The notes beneath the pieces were generated by a model. That model did not search any database, was not told where the DNA came from, and worked only from the letters and a program-made list of their open reading frames with translations. Positions 1 through 8,614 of a DNA stretch of 64,000 nt are shown here, one piece after another. Numbering within the stretch: position 1 is the stretch's first letter; each line of letters opens with the position of its first letter. This stretch comes from a virus: positions 1,191 to 65,190 of IMG/VR virus record IMGVR_UViG_3300046824_000031; one strand, 5' to 3'. The position numbers and the translations under genes are program-made.

Positions 1-1
1 G

Positions 2-1036
2 ATGGCGTATGAATGGCGGCACCAACGGCGACAGCGTGCGCTGCCTGAGCCGAATAAGCTCGGGCAATCGATGCGCTACAAAGCTCGCCGTGAGCGGGAG
101 CTTACCGCCAAACAGATCTACGATCTTCAGATGCGCGAAGCGGTTATGCGCATGGCATCTGATGGGGTTCCCAAGCGAGAGATTGCAGACTATCTCTGCA
201 CCAGTACGGGCGTGGTTACCAAATATCGCAACGCTGCTCTTCGCAAGTCGATTCAGCGAGAACGAGATCGGCTTCGCTGGAAGCGCGTGGTTGCGAAGCA
301 CCACGCAATGCAGCCCAAACGACCGAAGCTTCTCCCAGGGTTTAGCCTGATGATTGGCGATATCATTCCGCCGGATGATCCTGCTGAGGATCGGCAGGAT
401 CTCCCCCCTGACTGGATGGAGGCGGTACGCGGGCCTGACTCGTCAGGTCTACGGGCGCTACCGCCTCCATCCTTCTCTGATGGGGAGGAAGATGACGATA
501 CGGTTCCCCCCTCGTCATCTTCTTCCCCTCACGGCTCCTCCCCCCACTCCTCGTCGGGTGAAGTCCTCGATTCCCCCGATGCTCTGATCATGCGGCAGGA
601 ATGCTTACGGCTTCGAAAGGCCATGATCCCCTACGACATCATGGCCCAGGCGCTGCACATCACCACCAAGGAAGCGAAACAGTACACCTCCGAGGCGCTG
701 ATAGAGCTTCAGGAATCTGAGGAACTGAATACTGATCTGCATCGGCAGTTGATGATCGCGCAGATCGACCAGATGATTGCGGCGATCCACGCTCCCTCCA
801 CCGGCTCCCATCTCGACGGAACTCCAGTGCCGGTGATGCTCGAAGCTATTGATCGGATGCTCAAGCTGATGAAGCAGAAGGCTGAGCTTCTGGGTCTGAA
901 CACGCCGGTCGCGGTGGACATCAGGATCCGACTCCAGTCTCTGGCAGCAGAGGGCGGCTATGATATCGTGGAGCTTGAAGACATCGCGAAAGAGGTGCTC
1001 CAGGCTCATAAGGTCAAGCTCCCAGATTTCAACTAA
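2..1036 (+). CDS. Putative terminase small subunit (two HTH-like segments)
   Basis: HTH-like stretches (GVPKREIADYLCTSTGVV; IPYDIMAQALHITTKEA), C-terminal LLGLNTPV typical of TerS, upstream of terL; the start may lie outside the window. Confidence 0.55.
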   Translation: MAYEWRHQRRQRALPEPNKLGQSMRYKARRERELTAKQIYDLQMREAVMRMASDGVPKREIADYLCTSTGVVTKYRNAALRKSIQRERDRLRWKRVVAKHHAMQPKRPKLLPGFSLMIGDIIPPDDPAEDRQDLPPDWMEAVRGPDSSGLRALPPPSFSDGEEDDDTVPPSSSSSPHGSSPHSSSGEVLDSPDALIMRQECLRLRKAMIPYDIMAQALHITTKEAKQYTSEALIELQESEELNTDLHRQLMIAQIDQMIAAIHAPSTGSHLDGTPVPVMLEAIDRMLKLMKQKAELLGLNTPVAVDIRIRLQSLAAEGGYDIVELEDIAKEVLQAHKVKLPDFN

Positions 1037-1053
1037 CTCTGGAGGCTACGTGG

Positions 1054-1305
1054 TTGGGTGGAGACGTGTGCTTTTCTCCTGGGGCTTTGGCGCTGTTAGG
1101 CGCGATCTGGCTCGTGCTTCAGGGGGTGATTGTCTTTCTTTTTCGCGGGTGGTTCGGGGCGTTGAACCAACAGATCGCGGCCGAGCATGCCAACGTGATG
1201 GAAGCCCGATCAGAGCGAGACCGGGTGACGGACAGTCTCGAAGCGACGATTGGCCTCGGGGAGAAGGCCGTTCGCAGAAGCGGGCAGCGGAGGAGTCCAC
1301 CGTGA
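1054..1305 (+). CDS. Holin-like single-TM/coiled-coil protein
   Basis: N-terminal hydrophobic helix then coiled coil; in the lysis cassette. Confidence 0.45.
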   Translation: MGGDVCFSPGALALLGAIWLVLQGVIVFLFRGWFGALNQQIAAEHANVMEARSERDRVTDSLEATIGLGEKAVRRSGQRRSPP

Positions 1306-1487
1306 TGCAGAAGCTCCTGGGGTTTTTGGGACTGATCCCCAGGTTTCCGGCGTCCGAAGAAGCTGACGAGGATAAGTACGCCTTTCAACGTCGCAAGCGT
1401 GTGTTGGACATCCGACTTCAGAGGCTGACCCGAGAGGTTGAAGCGCAGATCCAATCCGATGTACCGGAGGATCATGCGGCATGGTGA
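1305..1487 (+). CDS. Small hypothetical protein (60 aa)
   Basis: ATG overlaps the upstream TGA; C-terminal part of track ORF 960..1487. Confidence 0.5.
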   Translation: MQKLLGFLGLIPRFPASEEADEDKYAFQRRKRVLDIRLQRLTREVEAQIQSDVPEDHAAW

Positions 1488-1897
1488 AAGCCTCTCCCCT
1501 TGAGTGGGCCTGGACCCTGGTGGCTGCTGCCGGGCTGTGCTTCTCGATCTGGCTGGCGGTGAGCGGCTACCTGGATCTCAGGGCGGTGGTCGATGCCTCC
1601 CAGGAGAACCCACCCAGAGCGCGGATCTGGGGGCCGCGCTACTGGGTGGCGCTCTCATCCTGGTGTGCGAACGGAACCCTCTGTGTGATCTGGGTCGGGT
1701 TCATCCTGATTGGCGCGGTCGCGATGCAGTATCCGCCCCCACCGCCGACGGTGGACCAGACCGTCTCCAACCAGTGGGTTGGCTGGGTCTTGATCTTGAT
1801 GGAGCTTCTGCTGGCTGGGGTGCAGGGCTGGCACCTCTTTGTACGGGGGAAGATTGAAGCGGCGGATTCTCAGATGAGAGCACCGGGAAGGAAGTGA
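1481..1897 (+). CDS. Multi-pass membrane protein, possible holin
   Basis: About 3 hydrophobic segments; upstream of the lysins. Confidence 0.5.
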   Translation: MVKASPLEWAWTLVAAAGLCFSIWLAVSGYLDLRAVVDASQENPPRARIWGPRYWVALSSWCANGTLCVIWVGFILIGAVAMQYPPPPPTVDQTVSNQWVGWVLILMELLLAGVQGWHLFVRGKIEAADSQMRAPGRK

Positions 1898-1898
1898 T

Positions 1899-2282
1899 AT
1901 GCGTGTACTGTGGACGCTGGTCATGCTCGTACTGTCTCTGGGAGCGACTCAGGTTACTGCTCAGGCGCAAAGTCTAGCGGGGTTCAACCAGGACTGCGGA
2001 ACCTACGAATTCGACGGGGATCTGACCAAGGGCCGGACTGACGGGATGGTCGTCAAGGTTGACCACACCCAGGGCTGCTACCGGTACAAGTTCATGACGA
2101 TCATCGGGGCTGACCGCGAAGAGATGGCGTCGAACCCCACGAGCGAACGATCCTGGCAAACAGCCCTCTGTCAGAAGGCTGGGCGGGAAGCAGCCGTCGG
2201 CCACTTCCACTACTACCGGGGCATAGAGATTGACGGATCCAGCGTCAAAGTCTCCTGCACCCCCTACCGAGGAGATGACTGA
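1899..2282 (+). CDS. Secreted protein with signal peptide and 4 Cys
   Basis: MRVLWTLVMLVLSLGATQVTAQA signal peptide ending A-Q-A; four Cys in the mature part. Confidence 0.6.
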   Translation: MRVLWTLVMLVLSLGATQVTAQAQSLAGFNQDCGTYEFDGDLTKGRTDGMVVKVDHTQGCYRYKFMTIIGADREEMASNPTSERSWQTALCQKAGREAAVGHFHYYRGIEIDGSSVKVSCTPYRGDD

Positions 2283-2508
2283 TCCTATGGCTCGGCGCTT
2301 TCACCTGGAACGAGACGTAGATGAAACCGGCATTTCGGGAACTGGACGTATCGCTGAGGGCGTCCAGTTTTCGTCAGGCTGGTGTTCGATGATCTGGTTG
2401 ACGCAGTACTTCAGCGTGGTGGTCTACCCCGATGTCGAGTCAGTTGTCCTGATCCACGGGCACGGCGGCAAGACCCGTCTGGTCTGGGATGATGAGGAGC
2501 ATGCCTGA
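2275..2508 (+). CDS. Conserved phage hypothetical protein
   Basis: FHLERDVDETGISGTGRIAEGVQF resembles a widespread actinophage family; GAGGAG RBS before ATG 2275. Confidence 0.65.
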   Translation: MTDPMARRFHLERDVDETGISGTGRIAEGVQFSSGWCSMIWLTQYFSVVVYPDVESVVLIHGHGGKTRLVWDDEEHA

Positions 2509-3530
2509 TGTTTGGGCTGGTCGTTTCCCCTCCCTTCTTGCCCTCCCTGAACGAAGTCGAAGCGTTGCGGCCAGCCCTGCTCCGATCCATCCTCTATCAC
2601 GTCGATGACTGCTGGGCTGTCAGCGCCCGCAGCCGGCCCTATCTGGTGACGGTCAACAACGAGTGCGCTGAGGTCAAGTCAGACTGGAGTGGCTGGGATG
2701 ACGCGATCAAGCAGATCGCAAACCTCCCGAACAAACCCTGGGCCGTCGAAGTCGGCAACGAGTTCGACCTGTTCTGGCAGAATAACCCCCACGATGTCCC
2801 CCCAGAGTTTGCCGCCGATCTCATTCAGCGAGCTTCGGTCATACTGCGGCCCCGAGGGATCAAGGTCATTGCCACGTCTGTCGCCGGTGGCCGCTGGCCT
2901 GAGTACCTGGATCGTCTGGCCAGTCTGTGCCGTTCTTCGGTGGACTACTTCAACCTCCACCCCTACGGCCAGCGACCGACAGGCTGGGGAGTACCCGGCT
3001 GGGGGTTTGGAGACCTGAAGGACGCGATCACGACGGCTCACGGGATCTCGGGGCGACCGATCTACTGCACCGAGATCGGGGTCACCGTCGGGATGGCGGG
3101 GGGTGAGCAGCAGCAGGCTGCCTGGCTGACCCAGGCAGCGCAGACCCTCTACGATCTCGGCCCCGAGGTCTGCGAGGGAGCGTCTATCTTTGCCTGGAAG
3201 GATCAGATCGGCGCCCCCTGGGAGCGGGGTCCGAGTGCGTTCGGTCTCCGACGCGATGATGATTCACGGCGCCCTGGCTGGTATGCTTTCCAGGAACTGC
3301 CGTCCCGATCTGGAGAGGAAATGCCGGTGTTCACCGTTGGAGACGGGGTCAAAGCCCAGATGGCGTTCTATGGTGATGAGCCTGGGACGGACGAGATCTA
3401 CCACCCCATCGGAGCGTCTCAGGGCAAGCATCAGTACAGCGAAACGTTTGGTAAGTCTGGCCGCCGGTACGTGTACATCTTCTCGAACGGAAAGACCGTA
3501 ACCTACGCACCCGAGGCACCTGTTGTATGA
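2508..3530 (+). CDS. Clan GH-A (GH5-like) glycoside hydrolase with C-terminal putative cell-wall-binding domain
   Basis: VGNEF acid/base, NLHPYG, YCTEIG nucleophile; C-terminus homologous to that of the next gene. Confidence 0.75.
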   Translation: MFGLVVSPPFLPSLNEVEALRPALLRSILYHVDDCWAVSARSRPYLVTVNNECAEVKSDWSGWDDAIKQIANLPNKPWAVEVGNEFDLFWQNNPHDVPPEFAADLIQRASVILRPRGIKVIATSVAGGRWPEYLDRLASLCRSSVDYFNLHPYGQRPTGWGVPGWGFGDLKDAITTAHGISGRPIYCTEIGVTVGMAGGEQQQAAWLTQAAQTLYDLGPEVCEGASIFAWKDQIGAPWERGPSAFGLRRDDDSRRPGWYAFQELPSRSGEEMPVFTVGDGVKAQMAFYGDEPGTDEIYHPIGASQGKHQYSETFGKSGRRYVYIFSNGKTVTYAPEAPVV

Positions 3531-4375
3531 GTAGCTCAGGCACCGCAGTCCGAGGCGTGGATGTCTCGAATCACCAGGGTTGGATCGACTGGGATCAGGT
3601 TCGCGACGCTGGTTATGTCTTTGGATTCGCCAAGGCCACCGAGGGAACCTATTACAACGATCCGTACTTCCCCCAGAACTGGGGAGAGATGCACCGCGTC
3701 GGTATGCACCGAGGTGCCTATCACTTCGCACGACCGTCCTCAGGATCTCCAGACGCCGAAGCCAGCTTCTTCCTCGCTTCGATCAACCATGTCGGGGGCC
3801 TGGAGCCTGGGGACATGGTCGTTCTGGACATGGAAGACGAGAAGTACCATACGGGTGGACCCTACGCCTCAGCGGGGGCCTGGAGCCTGGGGTTCCTGGA
3901 CTACCTGGAGGAGGTTCTGGGGTTTCCCCCGCTGATCTATACCGGAGCCTGGTACACGTCGTCTCGGGGGATGTCTGAAGAACAGGGCTTAGCCGACTAC
4001 CCGCTCTGGCTCTCGAACTACCGCGCGACGATACCCGCGCCCCCTGAGCCCTGGGAGCGGATCAGCTTCTGGCAACACTCGGACATCGGACAGGTGCCGG
4101 GGATTCAGGGGAACTGCGACCTGAACATCTTCAACGGCGACGCCAGCAGAATTCCCCTTCTCGGCAAACCAGGGCACGTCATCCCCAAACCTCCGGCGAC
4201 GACCTATAATGTCGGGCCGGGGATTCTGGTCGCGATGCAGGAGAATCAGGATATCCCCGCAACCAATGAACACTATCTGACACCTGATTGGTCCGAAGCC
4301 TACGGAGAGTCAGGCTCGAAGTACGTCTACATCGCGTCCCTGAATCGTGTTGAAACGTTCTCCCCCGATGCCTAG
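3527..4375 (+). CDS. Endolysin, GH25 muramidase plus C-terminal binding domain
   Basis: GVDVSNHQG, AKATEG, GAYHF, LDMED, WQHS, DLN motifs of GH25. Confidence 0.92.
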   Translation: MSSSGTAVRGVDVSNHQGWIDWDQVRDAGYVFGFAKATEGTYYNDPYFPQNWGEMHRVGMHRGAYHFARPSSGSPDAEASFFLASINHVGGLEPGDMVVLDMEDEKYHTGGPYASAGAWSLGFLDYLEEVLGFPPLIYTGAWYTSSRGMSEEQGLADYPLWLSNYRATIPAPPEPWERISFWQHSDIGQVPGIQGNCDLNIFNGDASRIPLLGKPGHVIPKPPATTYNVGPGILVAMQENQDIPATNEHYLTPDWSEAYGESGSKYVYIASLNRVETFSPDA

Positions 4376-5963
4376 CCGTGAAAACCCCTTCTACGTACCG
4401 GAGGATGTGGCTGATGAAGTCCTCAAAGACATCGTCGTCCGCGCGGCAGCCAGCAAGAAGCTCAAGCCGAAAGTCTTCAACCCCGCTCTCGGAGCAACCG
4501 CTGAAGAAGCTGAGGAGACTCTCGCTGCCATGCGGGGCAGTGTCGATCTTTACGGTGAATACGTCTTCGGCCATACTGCTGCGAGAGTTCACCAGTTCTG
4601 GAACCGGCAAGTAGATGATGTGATCTTTCGCAGGATCCGACAGAATAAGATCCTGATCCTGGCGCCCCCCAACTCAGCCAAGTCCACCTGGAATAGTTTG
4701 ATCCGGCCCTGCTTCTACCTGGGGAACAGGCCGGATCACAACCTGCTCTTCATGACCTCGTCGGACGACATGGCGAAGACCTTCGGGACCACGGTCCGGA
4801 TGACCTTGCAGGAGTCAGAGCGCCATGCAGAAGTCTTCCCCGATGTGTCTTGCCGTCCTCACCGAGCCAGAGGCTGGTCTGGAGATGGTCTTTACCTTAG
4901 AGGTACGCCTATCGGATCGAAAGATCCAGCGTACAAAGCCGTTGGATTCGGCATGTCCGTCATGGGGGCTAGAGCAAACGGGATTATCCTGGACGATGTA
5001 CTCGACCAAAAACAAGCCGAGTCAGACATCGAGCAAGCGAAAGCCATCAACTATTACACCAAGACTGTGGTCCCTCGTCTGAACACCCAGGACGGCTGGC
5101 TGCTGGCTGTCATGACCCGCTTCGCTGAGGGGGATCTGGGGGGCCACTTTATGAAGCTGGCCGAGCAGTCAGGGGACTGGCTGATCATCCGCACCCCCCT
5201 CGAAGCAGAAGACGGCGACCCGATGGGGAGACTCCCCGGAGAGTCCGTCTGGGTTGACCAGTTCCCCCCTGAGTTCATCGCAGCCACCAAGAAGTCTATG
5301 TCGATAGCTGAGTACGATCTGGTCTATCAGGCCGATCCCCGAGGCATCGGTGGGGACATCTTCACCAACGAGTTCTATTTCAAAGATCTCCCCCCGAACT
5401 TCTGGCAGGAGATCTTCCCCCAGTGCTTCACCGCCCAGGCCGTTGACCTGGCGTTCTCGAAGAACAAGCGGACCTGTTTCACCGTGATCCTGACCTATGC
5501 CGTGGACGCCAACTTCAACATGTATCTGCTCCACGTGGACCGGAATAGGTATCAGGTCCGAGACTCTGAGGAACGCCTCAAGGAACTGATCCGGCTGACG
5601 AAGCCCCTGGTCACGGTCATCGAGACCGAGAATTTTCATGACGCCATGATTCGGTCGATGGTGATTCGGATCATGTCGGAGATCATGTGTGACATTCGCT
5701 TAGACAAACCGGAAGCTGATAAGATTGCACGTGCCCGACTTCCAGCGGGACGGGCGGAACACGGCTTTATGTATGCAGATCGGGAGGCTCCCTGGTATCG
5801 GACGTTCATGTCCGAACTCCTGGGGTTCCCCAACTCGACGTTCAAGGATCAGGTCGATGCCCTGTCCCTGGCGGCACTGACCGTGCAGAAGATGGAGGAG
5901 CAGGCCACCCGCTTGAAGCGGTCGAGTAAACCTGTACAGACGCAGATGGTGATGTCCGCGTAA
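4347..5963 (+). CDS. terL: Terminase large subunit
   Basis: LAPPNSAKST Walker A, IILDD Walker B, YQADP, nuclease AVDLAFS and DQVDALS. Confidence 0.93.
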   Translation: MLKRSPPMPSRENPFYVPEDVADEVLKDIVVRAAASKKLKPKVFNPALGATAEEAEETLAAMRGSVDLYGEYVFGHTAARVHQFWNRQVDDVIFRRIRQNKILILAPPNSAKSTWNSLIRPCFYLGNRPDHNLLFMTSSDDMAKTFGTTVRMTLQESERHAEVFPDVSCRPHRARGWSGDGLYLRGTPIGSKDPAYKAVGFGMSVMGARANGIILDDVLDQKQAESDIEQAKAINYYTKTVVPRLNTQDGWLLAVMTRFAEGDLGGHFMKLAEQSGDWLIIRTPLEAEDGDPMGRLPGESVWVDQFPPEFIAATKKSMSIAEYDLVYQADPRGIGGDIFTNEFYFKDLPPNFWQEIFPQCFTAQAVDLAFSKNKRTCFTVILTYAVDANFNMYLLHVDRNRYQVRDSEERLKELIRLTKPLVTVIETENFHDAMIRSMVIRIMSEIMCDIRLDKPEADKIARARLPAGRAEHGFMYADREAPWYRTFMSELLGFPNSTFKDQVDALSLAALTVQKMEEQATRLKRSSKPVQTQMVMSA

Positions 5964-6003
5964 ACGTGTGCTACCATAGGTTCAGCTTCCGAAGGAGTTT
6001 ATC

Positions 6004-6249
6004 ATGGCGAGAGCCACCGGTACGCAGGCCCTGTCAGTTACTCCCGTTCAGCTTCCAGCGCAGCCCTGCCTGGAAGTCAGCATCGCCAACAACGATGCGT
6101 CTATCGCCGTGTTGATCGGGTGGAACGCGACCACGCAGACCTATACGATTGCCGCTGGTCACAGCGTGGTTGTTCAGGCCCAGAACCTCAACCAGTTGTG
6201 GGCGAAGTCAGCGTCGGGCACCCCGACCCTGAGCTACATCACGTCCTAA
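6004..6249 (+). CDS. Small beta-rich virion protein (possible head decoration)
   Basis: GAAGGAG RBS; beta-strand pattern; between terL and portal. Confidence 0.55.
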   Translation: MARATGTQALSVTPVQLPAQPCLEVSIANNDASIAVLIGWNATTQTYTIAAGHSVVVQAQNLNQLWAKSASGTPTLSYITS

Positions 6250-6259
6250 GGGGAGCACC

Positions 6260-6487
6260 ATGTCTCCCTCCAGTAAAGGTGTAGCGATCACCAAGAGCGA
6301 CTCCACGGATCTGACGGGGATCAAGCAACTCTACGTCGGTACGACCGGTGATGTTGCTGTCAGGCTGACCCGAGATCCTGGGAATACGCTGGTGATCCCG
6401 ACCGTGCCAGCAGGCACGATCCTCAAGCTCAGCATCACGCGCGTCATGGCAGCTTCAACCGCTGCGGGATTCGTCGGGTTCTACTAG
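6260..6487 (+). CDS. Head-spike base protein (RcGTA Rcc01079-like)
   Basis: AITKSDSTDL..LYVGTTGDVAVRL..VPAGTIL..RVMA matches the spike-base pattern as recalled. Confidence 0.7.
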   Translation: MSPSSKGVAITKSDSTDLTGIKQLYVGTTGDVAVRLTRDPGNTLVIPTVPAGTILKLSITRVMAASTAAGFVGFY

Positions 6488-8614
6488 ATGACCTTTCCTG
6501 ACGAGAGAAGCCTCGTTGCCTCGCCCGGTTGGACTGGCTTCGCCAAGATGGGGCCGGAAGATCGGGCGAGGGCTGCCCTGGACTTCGTGTCCGATCTCCG
6601 CGAGGACTTCGTCCAGCGTGACACGATGATCCAGTTGATCGACCGCGTCGTCTTCCTGGAGCAGAAGGTCAACATCCCGAGTAACTTCCAGGACACGGCG
6701 ATCTCCGTGCAGTCCCCGCTTCCCCGGCACATCGTCAATCAGATCGTCGCGGCCCTTTCCCTGAACGCTCCGACGGTGCATTTTGACCCGATCAAGTTTG
6801 GCGACGACGGTGAAGACGATGCCGCTCATCGCTGCCGGTTCTTTGAAGGTTCGTGGGTTCGACAGCAACGAGAAAAGAAGCGCCCCCTTCACCGCCTGTT
6901 CATGGATGCGGTGGTCACCAAAGGCGACGGCTGGTTCAAGACGATGGAGCGGAAGAACCGCGCCTGGGCCAAGTACACCCCCTACTCCCGAGATCTCCTC
7001 AAGGAACTCGACCGCAAGGTAGATAGCGGGGAGATGGACCGCGACCATGCGACCAGGATGTGGGACGCCCTGACCGAAGAGAAGAAGCGTGGGCTCCCCT
7101 ACCCCATCGAAACGACCGAAGTCCCGCCGGAGTTCATGTACTATCAGCGCGGCGAAGACGGCTTCGTCCGAATAGCCGAGGTCTCAGCAGTCCCGTATTT
7201 TGAGACGCTGATCAAGCACAAGTCTGCCCTGAACGCCAAGGGCGAAGTGGTCGCGATGGACGACGTAGCCTCCCTTCCCTTGCCGATGGATAAGTGGGGG
7301 CAGGTCTTCGGGAAGTCCAACTCGATGCGGCAGACTATCGAGAAGGTAGAACTCTGGGATCCCGAGAAGTGTACGGTGATCCTCAGAGGCCCCGGTGACA
7401 TCGTAGACAAGCGACGTGGCTCTGGGATGATGGTGGAAGAATGGGATCACGGCTACGGAGATCCGAATCTGGGAGTCCTGAGGGGTCCGTATTTCCAAGC
7501 AGCCGGCATTCTTACGTCTTCTCGGGAGCCGCACAAAGCCCATCTCTCTGTCCTGTATGCCTATCTCCACTTGTTCCCGTTACTCAACGCGCTCCTGACC
7601 ATGCAGTCGCAGGCTGCCTTTTCGTTTGCGTATCCCGCGTACCGAAGAACACAGGCCCCGACCTATAACCTCCCTGACGCCCCGTTTGGGTTGGCGGCCG
7701 ATGAGATCGTAGGGAACCGGCAGAAGATTGTTCCAGGCGCCATTTTCCCGCACGACATCGCCCCGATGGATCAGCCTCATACCTCTGTTGATCTGGACAA
7801 GGCGATCCAGTTCGTCAAGTCCATGATCGACCTGGCCCTCCCTGACACCGTCCAGGGGGCGGTCTCTGGCGAGATGGCAGGCTACGCCCTGAATCAGGCA
7901 GCCCACCTGGCCTCGCTGACCTGGGGGCCGATTGTTGATAACGTCCAGACCTGTCATGCTGAGCGGACCAACTGGGAATCAGCCCTGATCGAAGAGAAGA
8001 TCGGGGAGACGGTCTACGTCTACGGGTCAGTCCCGCAGCCCCGTAAGCGGCCGGGGCAGCCTCGTCAGTACAAGGCTGGCTGGATTGGGTTGGGTCCGAA
8101 AGAGATTGACGGGGTCCACAACTACGAGATCGAACTCAAGCCGGCGACGATCAACAACGACGAGCTTGAGCTTCGGATCATTCACCAGGAACTGGACATG
8201 CGGCTGATGTCCCCCGAGGAAGCAGTCCGACGACGAGGACGTAACCCTGTTGAAGTGGAACGATCATGGATGCTGTACGAACTGAAGCAGGATCCCGAGA
8301 TCCGCAACAACATGAAGCAGCGGATCTTCCAGCAGTTGAACATCCTGGAGCAGCAGAGTATGCAGGCACTCGGCCCCGAAGGTGCCCCTGGTGGTGCTCC
8401 TCCGGTAGAAATGTCTGGCCTGCCCCCAGGTGCCCAGCCGGGTGTCTCCCAGGGATTGCCCACAACGGGATTCGTCCCACCGGCAGGTTCCGTAGCACCC
8501 GCCCCGACTCCTCCGCCGATGAGTCTCCCGCAAGCCCCTGGACAGAATCAGGGAGCGCCAGCGGGAGCTAGACCTGCGCCGCCGCAGCATCTCCCGCTTC
8601 CAGGGGGTGGCTGA
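6488..8614 (+). CDS. Portal protein with long Pro/Gly/Gln-rich C-terminal tail
   Basis: 708 aa helical protein after terL; GAVSGEMAGYALNQ resembles podovirus-type portals. Confidence 0.8.
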   Translation: MTFPDERSLVASPGWTGFAKMGPEDRARAALDFVSDLREDFVQRDTMIQLIDRVVFLEQKVNIPSNFQDTAISVQSPLPRHIVNQIVAALSLNAPTVHFDPIKFGDDGEDDAAHRCRFFEGSWVRQQREKKRPLHRLFMDAVVTKGDGWFKTMERKNRAWAKYTPYSRDLLKELDRKVDSGEMDRDHATRMWDALTEEKKRGLPYPIETTEVPPEFMYYQRGEDGFVRIAEVSAVPYFETLIKHKSALNAKGEVVAMDDVASLPLPMDKWGQVFGKSNSMRQTIEKVELWDPEKCTVILRGPGDIVDKRRGSGMMVEEWDHGYGDPNLGVLRGPYFQAAGILTSSREPHKAHLSVLYAYLHLFPLLNALLTMQSQAAFSFAYPAYRRTQAPTYNLPDAPFGLAADEIVGNRQKIVPGAIFPHDIAPMDQPHTSVDLDKAIQFVKSMIDLALPDTVQGAVSGEMAGYALNQAAHLASLTWGPIVDNVQTCHAERTNWESALIEEKIGETVYVYGSVPQPRKRPGQPRQYKAGWIGLGPKEIDGVHNYEIELKPATINNDELELRIIHQELDMRLMSPEEAVRRRGRNPVEVERSWMLYELKQDPEIRNNMKQRIFQQLNILEQQSMQALGPEGAPGGAPPVEMSGLPPGAQPGVSQGLPTTGFVPPAGSVAPAPTPPPMSLPQAPGQNQGAPAGARPAPPQHLPLPGGG

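Follow-up and report, generated by a model that had tools for sequence, protein, structure and literature searches.

Does a single phage lysin gene at this locus give rise to two proteins? We analyzed a 64,000-nt stretch of viral DNA (positions 1,191 to 65,190 of IMG/VR record IMGVR_UViG_3300046824_000031; hereafter, the window), which derives from a 67-kb viral contig with a CheckV completeness of 51% and a GC content of ~59%. The gene at 2508..3530 (plus strand) encodes a full-length, lysin-like glycosidase of 340 aa, in which a clan GH-A TIM barrel is joined to a small C-terminal domain. A Shine-Dalgarno (SD)-like sequence, followed by in-frame start codons, lies at the joint between the two. 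A preliminary description of the window proposed that this signal would release the C-terminal domain as a free protein. We favor a similar reading, to which we assign a probability of about two-thirds: judging from the sequences compared below, 2508-3530 would be a two-product lysin gene encoding the full-length enzyme and a free domain of 67-69 aa, with the two products assembling as they do in Lys170, LysIME-EF1, CTP1L, and LysP7951.

The boundaries of the joint were set on an AlphaFold (AF2) model of the 340-aa protein with a mean predicted local distance difference test (pLDDT) score of 91.7. Secondary structure, pLDDT, and fold matches delimit a catalytic TIM-barrel domain of residues 1-262 (2508..3293, plus strand), which is followed by an interdomain linker of residues 263-278 (3294..3341, plus strand). 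The linker is modeled as a loop with a pLDDT of about 73, its residues vary among homologues, and the small domain begins at residue 279. Within the linker, the SD-like sequence GGAGAGGAA (3312..3320, plus strand) positions GGAG 5 nt before an ATG at 3321..3323 (plus strand) and GAGG 8 nt before a GTG at 3327..3329 (plus strand). The ATG is codon M272 of the gene, since (3321-2508)/3 = 271, and it is the candidate start of a 69-aa product ending at the stop codon at 3528-3530; the GTG (V274) is a second, alternative candidate that would yield 67 aa. Both codons fall inside the 263-278 loop, more than 20 codons from either end of the gene and outside the domains. The preliminary description was therefore correct in placing an SD directly before an in-frame ATG with a 69-aa product, and in locating it at the boundary between the catalytic and binding domains. 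The internal open reading frame (ORF; 3321..3530, plus strand) would encode the free C-terminal domain, a putatively wall-binding module with one helix and a four-stranded sheet.

The strength of the site was estimated as the energy of its duplex with a generic 16S 3′ tail used as anti-SD, which may not be the host's own sequence and serves as an energy proxy rather than as an equivalent of the RBS Calculator. On this scale, ATG 3321 scored -6.4 kcal/mol and GTG 3327 scored -8.6 kcal/mol, placing them second and first, respectively, among the nine in-frame internal ATG, GTG, and TTG codons of the gene. No internal codon of 2508-3530 outside the joint reaches -6.4 kcal/mol.

Whether such a site is maintained was examined in related genes. 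A scan of metagenomes for relatives returned only two loci. The DNA set consisted of nine homologous genes plus the window gene, read codon by codon at the joint, and became 11 with the addition of L014; nine of these are GH-A genes, and in L010 and L014 another catalytic domain occupies the N-terminus. Three further homologous loci (P0006, P0008, and P0009) were used at the protein level only. In 10/10 genes, a GGAG/GAGG-type motif is followed by an in-frame ATG, GTG, or TTG within 1-3 codons of the start of the C-terminal (FTVG) domain, and all 11 related genes have an SD-like motif upstream of an in-frame ATG, GTG, or TTG that lies 1-4 codons from the point where the domain begins. In the 10 genes, the peptides encoded by the linker diverge (SGEEM, RGGPM, TEELPM, QEPMPM, PEDPM, WEELPV, LEVIPV, GGEETPV, PEEPM, and QEPLPM). 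The motif of L008, GGAGGTGATC, is the full complement of the 16S tail used in the energy scan. The exact start codon shifts from gene to gene. The position of M272 is occupied by ATG in four of the nine GH-A genes and by TTG, ATC, ACG, or CTC in the others; L010 has its ATG one codon later; and the position of V274 holds the sole start-capable codon (ATG or GTG) in three homologues (L008, L009, and L011). The two genes with other N-terminal domains carry GGAGGAA-CCG-ATG (L010, protein P0042) and AAGGAG-5 nt-ATG (L014) at the joint. An additional gene on a short contig whose frame is open upstream (L013), counted besides the 11, has AGGAGG-7 nt-GTG. At the protein level, a Met lies no more than six residues upstream of the C-terminal domain in 8 of 20 representatives of clusters formed at 50% identity, often within an (E/D)xMP context.

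By anti-SD pairing, the joint start is the best or second-best in-frame internal start of every gene, with energies of -6.6 to -15.6 kcal/mol. For comparison, the median is -3.1 kcal/mol for the 119 other in-frame internal starts (5th percentile, -6.6) and -7.4 kcal/mol for 69 called gene starts of these phages. Outside the joint, starts with an SD of -6.4 or stronger occur 11 times per 3270 codons, which corresponds to a 1.3% chance per gene in a four-codon window vs. the 11/11 observed. As judged from these sequences, the combination of SD and start at the joint is in excess of chance. Folding of the mRNA near the joint is also slightly below the average for the gene (median percentile, 0.18).

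The gene that follows provided a natural control. It encodes a GH25 muramidase of 282 aa (3527..4375, plus strand; PF01183, E 9.7e-43; phrog_291, endolysin) that carries the same C-terminal domain at 4190-4372, with 35% identity over 63 residues (E 7e-11), bearing out the earlier assertion that the two enzymes share it. The joint of this gene has no internal SD or start. Likewise, in six GH25 partner genes the joint preceding the same domain is Pro-rich, contains no start within nine codons, and shows weak SD energy (0/6), and the joint of a fusion protein encoded by L016 follows the same pattern. Together with the negative joint of L001, these controls indicate that the signal is specific to the joint of the TIM-barrel head with this domain, and by sequence comparison linkers in these genomes do not generally carry an SD with a start. 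What is observed directly is the SD with its start codons, their placement within the linker, their conservation among related genes at the DNA level, and their absence at the joint of the GH25 paralogue.

The L016 reading frame (749-2701) spans about 650 aa between two stop codons and comprises an unclassified N-terminal domain, a GH25 domain, and, at the C-terminus, the binding domain described here. Its N-terminal domain contains NELN and GEWN motifs and is possibly a TIM-barrel glycosidase, with no Pfam family matched. We considered L016 as a fusion of both window enzymes; its N-terminal domain is not significantly similar to the GH-A domain of the window (E 0.13), and L016 was therefore not used as Rosetta-stone evidence.

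The acidic nature of most linkers raises the question of whether the signal is a by-product of composition, in which Gly/Glu-rich linker codons (GGA GAG GAA) in a genome of 59% GC mimic an SD and the nearby Met or Val is coincidental. Glu-Glu or Gly-Glu does occur in most linkers, and a GAG codon after a codon ending in G gives GGAG automatically. However, the linker of L002 (RGGPM) lacks Glu and yet presents GGGGGA before its ATG, and a Met-Pro start recurs in unrelated fusion contexts. The excess over the 1.3% chance per gene and the negative GH25 joints likewise argue against composition. The distribution of SD energy along the aligned genes touches the same issue. The mean SD energy of the joint columns is the second strongest in the gene (-8.8, as compared to a gene mean of -3.05 with a standard deviation of 1.84), and their minimum, i.e., the value of the weakest member, is the strongest of all columns shared by the nine aligned genes. 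A stronger SD-like column exists only where the invariant peptide GDAGGE is encoded, which forces the motif, and no start lies behind it. That a conserved peptide can give an equally strong SD-like site with no start is a further point in favor of a compositional origin. On balance, we regard such an origin as very unlikely for the joint.

The location of the motif precisely at the domain boundary would also suit a role in elongation rather than initiation, in which the SD-like motif halts the ribosome after the TIM barrel emerges and thereby aids domain-wise folding. Ribosome pausing at internal SD-like sequences was once proposed, and this effect has been disputed as a profiling artefact. 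A pause would leave unexplained the in-frame start found in every homologue, as well as the existence of a stand-alone gene for the domain (see below). Moreover, the GH25 genes face the same two-domain folding problem and are without the motif. We therefore consider a pausing role extremely unlikely.

The stand-alone gene bears on the origin of the signal. In L015, a 45-kb viral contig, a gene of 61 aa (2501-2686) encodes the domain separately and has a GGGGGAG motif of its own; the gene before it terminates at 2492, and the frame upstream of the small gene reads as Arg-rich nonsense. At the level of gene sequence, then, a free form of the domain exists in nature. A second candidate for a stand-alone domain gene, P0047 (67 aa), was rejected since its 518-bp contig is open in frame to the edge, indicating a truncated fusion for which the gene caller chose the internal start; it was retained solely as a further instance of an SD with GTG at the joint. 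The existence of L015 makes it conceivable that the domain was once a separate gene that became fused to catalytic genes, and that the SD and start are leftovers at which no meaningful initiation occurs. The domain is mobile among many heads, and independent fusions such as L010 and L014 could each carry such a relic. In contrast, the GH-A clade, whose members are 59-70% identical to the window enzyme, keeps the SD and start in 9/9 genes despite turnover of the linker and a shifted start codon, and an unselected 6-nt motif with a start is unlikely to outlast such divergence. The GH25 fusions, in addition, have lost, or never had, any trace of the signal. We consider a relic of fusion improbable as the explanation for the joint.

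Structure prediction points to self-association of the domain. A four-copy model of the domain, built from a 45-row alignment, scored 0.62 vs. 0.01 for the best of three controls. The mark for this score was reached by 20 of 30 proteins solved as one-chain pairs and by 1 of 23 solved as single chains, counts that hold only roughly for four copies because calibration was done with two copies and with alignments made by the tool itself. Three model runs agree in at least 89% of contacts, with a partner pLDDT of at least 82. Each copy uses two different faces, in which residues 4, 20-26, 43-47, and 64-67 pack against residues 28-29, 38-39, and 51-63, as in a ring or chain built head-to-tail. GDxPATDE and SETFGxSG, the motifs most conserved across the family, sit on the first face. 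The model supports self-binding of the domain without demonstrating it.

On the favored reading of 2508-3530 as a two-product gene, ribosomes would start at ATG 2508 and produce the full-length GH-A glycosidase with its small C-terminal domain, and would also start, via the internal site GGAGAGGAA (3312-3320), at ATG 3321 or GTG 3327 to produce the 67-69-aa domain alone. The free domain would probably join head-to-tail with the domain of the full-length enzyme, and the outcome would be a multivalent wall-binding unit bearing one catalytic head. The earlier proposal that an internal start frees the binding domain is well supported, on comparative grounds, by the SD and start at 11/11 joints, their absence from GH25 paralogues, the stand-alone gene, and the predicted self-association; initiation at the site, stability of the product, oligomerization, and wall binding are inferences. 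A more speculative arrangement, a three-component complex with the GH25 enzyme as suggested in the preliminary description, is also conceivable. In one version of it, the domain would be a single blade-like unit able to bind the wall only in ring form, and the internal start of the GH-A gene would supply extra blades to both enzymes, so that the hydrolase and the GH25 enzyme would share one platform built from two genes and three polypeptides. Such mixed rings would account for the retention of an internal start in one gene of the pair only. In the GH25 copy of the domain, the first predicted interface is largely retained, and a 7-residue deletion lies beside the second. We regard mixed rings as an unlikely extension.

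Several points weigh against the two-product reading. The preliminary description had named a lack of conservation of the SD or Met in homologues as one refuting result, and the outcome is mixed: the SD, with an ATG or GTG within two codons, was present in every gene, but the Met codon is not fixed, and some homologues must use GTG, or an ATG two codons later. At L005 and L011, the SD energy is only -6.6 kcal/mol, which is the background's 5th percentile. Because the homologues share ancestry, 11/11 does not represent 11 independent events. GAG codons for Glu in the acidic linker create GGAG on their own. More distant relatives with a diverged domain (L001, P0014-P0039) have Pro-rich linkers without starts. 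Predictions of internal starts yield false positives, as judged from the 15% of portal genes in which they were also predicted, and the two products of internal-start endolysin genes do not always interact (PMC9430671).

In-frame internal starts in endolysin genes are already known and reportedly frequent, and in this respect our finding is confirmatory rather than surprising. Pinto et al. (2022; PMC9430671) report experimentally confirmed internal starts between the catalytic and binding domains of seven endolysins, with heteromers of 1:3, 2:2, and 1:5, and predicted internal starts in about half of 3,780 endolysins of Gram-positive phages vs. 15% of portal genes used as a control. Pinto-type criteria call for an in-frame start with a ribosome-binding site above the gene background, not near the gene ends, outside the domains, and at the same relative position within a cluster. 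In spirit, the window gene resembles the genes singled out in that survey and LysP7951 of Streptococcus thermophilus phage P7951. The survey drew on cultured Gram-positive phages and the RBS Calculator, whereas we relied on metagenomic relatives and an anti-SD energy proxy.

The closest parallels are Lys170 of Enterococcus phage F170/08 and LysIME-EF1, in each of which one gene with an in-frame internal start yields one full-length chain and three free binding domains (PMC7098653). Like these, the window gene combines one catalytic domain with one C-terminal binding domain and has its SD and start in the linker, and in our models its free domain is predicted to join the full-length chain head-to-tail in a manner compatible with a small ring. 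Unlike these, which have an amidase or CHAP domain as the head, it has a glycosidase of clan GH-A, as judged from sequence and models, and its binding domain lacks a sequence match in Pfam, PHROGs, or PDB. In the clostridial endolysins CTP1L, CD27L, and CS74L, a secondary translation product regulates the enzyme (PMC4777826). There too an internal start frees the C-terminal domain, which binds the full-length protein; however, those enzymes are amidases or GH25 enzymes with another C-terminal fold and form 2:2 complexes, and in the window cassette it is the GH25 gene that is without an internal start.

A small binding subunit can also be encoded separately, and the window differs from such cases in having its subunit nested in frame within the enzyme gene. 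PlyC of streptococcal phage C1 consists of catalytic PlyCA and a ring of eight PlyCB binding subunits, encoded by separate genes. The likeness lies in a small binding subunit that is its own polypeptide and is present in multiple copies. Among the matches returned, PlyCB showed no sequence or fold match to the small domain. The layout of L015, where the domain gene lies beside a probable peptidase, is similar to that of PlyC. Downstream of its domain gene lie genes for a 141-aa protein, which a language model places near papain-like C70/C39_2 peptidases (score 0.95, to be taken only as a lead), and for a 51-aa hydrophobic protein of membrane type. It is conceivable that L015 2501-3320 is a PlyC-like split lysin.

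What is new here is the class of enzyme, a GH-A polysaccharide hydrolase, the unclassified binding domain, the strength of the comparative evidence, and the asymmetry within a cassette of two lysins. If the two-product reading is true, the "one gene, two polypeptides" design of lysins extends to a non-peptidoglycan glycosidase with an unclassified wall-binding domain, and reaches beyond the cultured phages of Bacillota and mycobacteria in which it was described. Expression of these enzymes would then require the small product too for activity or binding, and annotation pipelines would miss it. The presence of the same domain on two enzymes, with an internal start in one gene only, offers a clean natural test of why binding domains are produced in free form.

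The C-terminal domain itself (~60 aa) was modeled alone by AF2 with a pLDDT of 93.5. Its family comprises 36 representatives, mostly at the C-termini of wall hydrolases, with GH-A, GH25, SLT, Amidase_2-like, and other heads; in P0065, the domain is N-terminal. Two tandem-repeat proteins, P0051 and P0067, were rejected as family members since they match only a 20-residue hairpin of the domain. Pfam and PHROGs contain no family for it, a profile search of PDB gave only insignificant matches to designed propeller repeats (E 0.15), and Foldseek against PDB returned nothing at E up to 0.001. In an exhaustive structural comparison, the best match was 6swz, the LGFP repeats in the C-terminal domain of mycoloyltransferase A from Corynebacterium glutamicum (Z 6.5, root-mean-square deviation 3.0 Å over 58/69 residues), followed by many beta-propeller blades (Z 4.3-5.2); Z scores below 8, such as these, are below the level considered specific and may stem from nothing more than a widespread arrangement of one helix and four strands. 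LGFP units serve in wall anchoring and act as repeats in tandem, a logic that a single window domain that multimerises would fit. In contrast, the LGFP family PF08310 matched neither the domain (E up to 0.1) nor any of the 45 aligned family members (E up to 1), and the PDB profile search missed 6swz. An LGFP-like fold of the modeled domain is therefore suggestive, not conclusive.

As for the enzyme to which the domain is attached, the 340-aa protein matches PF11790 (Glyco_hydro_cc; E 1.4e-07, 31.8 bits with a cut-off of 21), and its best Foldseek matches are PslG/GH39 (PslG, E 1.6e-11) and GH128 (TM-score 0.73, normalised by target length). N84, E85, and E189, which correspond to the Asn-Glu acid/base motif and the second catalytic Glu, are invariant among 27 homologues. 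On these three grounds, and with a modeled fold like that of PslG/GH39 and GH128, we classify the protein as a clan GH-A polysaccharide hydrolase, not a classical muramidase. Its setting is of the lysis type, with a holin-like protein 5′ of it, a GH25 endolysin directly 3′ and then the terminase, and its C-terminal domain is common to the GH25 enzyme. The structurally nearest enzymes hydrolyse exopolysaccharides and glucans and are not peptidoglycan hydrolases. A secondary polymer of the wall, or a capsule, may be what it cleaves during lysis. The neighbourhood varies elsewhere: at the P0006 locus, the same GH-A enzyme is preceded by an M23 peptidase instead of being followed by a GH25 gene, and at the L010 locus, the different-headed P0042 is followed by an Amidase_2 gene. 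A collection of cultured phages contained no relative of the GH-A enzyme, and a scan of genome contigs gave no relative. Matches of the large terminase (TerL) are all below 30% identity, too distant to point to a host.

The cassette opens with a holin candidate of 138 aa (1481..1897, plus strand) in which three hydrophobic segments were read by eye and which matched no Pfam or PHROG family. It is followed by an ORF at 1899-2282, encoding a 127-aa protein with a signal-like N-terminus, and by a gene for a 92-aa protein (2230-2508, plus strand; phrog_7499, E 5e-26), the stop of which overlaps the start of the lysin gene 2508-3530. In seven related loci, the counterparts of this 92-aa gene are recorded as PF26761 "Acb5", and the retention of a small protein of the anti-defence type within a lysis cassette is unexpected. 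The genes of the cassette are tightly coupled, and the two lysin genes are joined by an ATGA overlap (3527-3530). No sigma-70-like promoter or terminator was found in 1300-4600, so that an internal promoter giving a separate transcript of the domain is not indicated, and positions 1-8000 had no match to Rfam families. Two minus-strand ORFs over the site (3264-3731 and 3349-3543) were dismissed as the usual long antisense frames of GC-rich DNA, as they overlap two well-supported genes.

The large terminase lies 3′ of the GH25 gene, from 4347. As listed from GTG 4347, its ORF overlaps the GH25 gene by 29 nt and has a near-absent SD (-0.9), and its real start may sit further downstream. In L008, the gene after the GH25 lysin (3140-3823) belongs to an 850-aa product with faint matches to Hom_end and LAGLIDADG_3, which suggests an intein or endonuclease insertion in the terminase of that phage.

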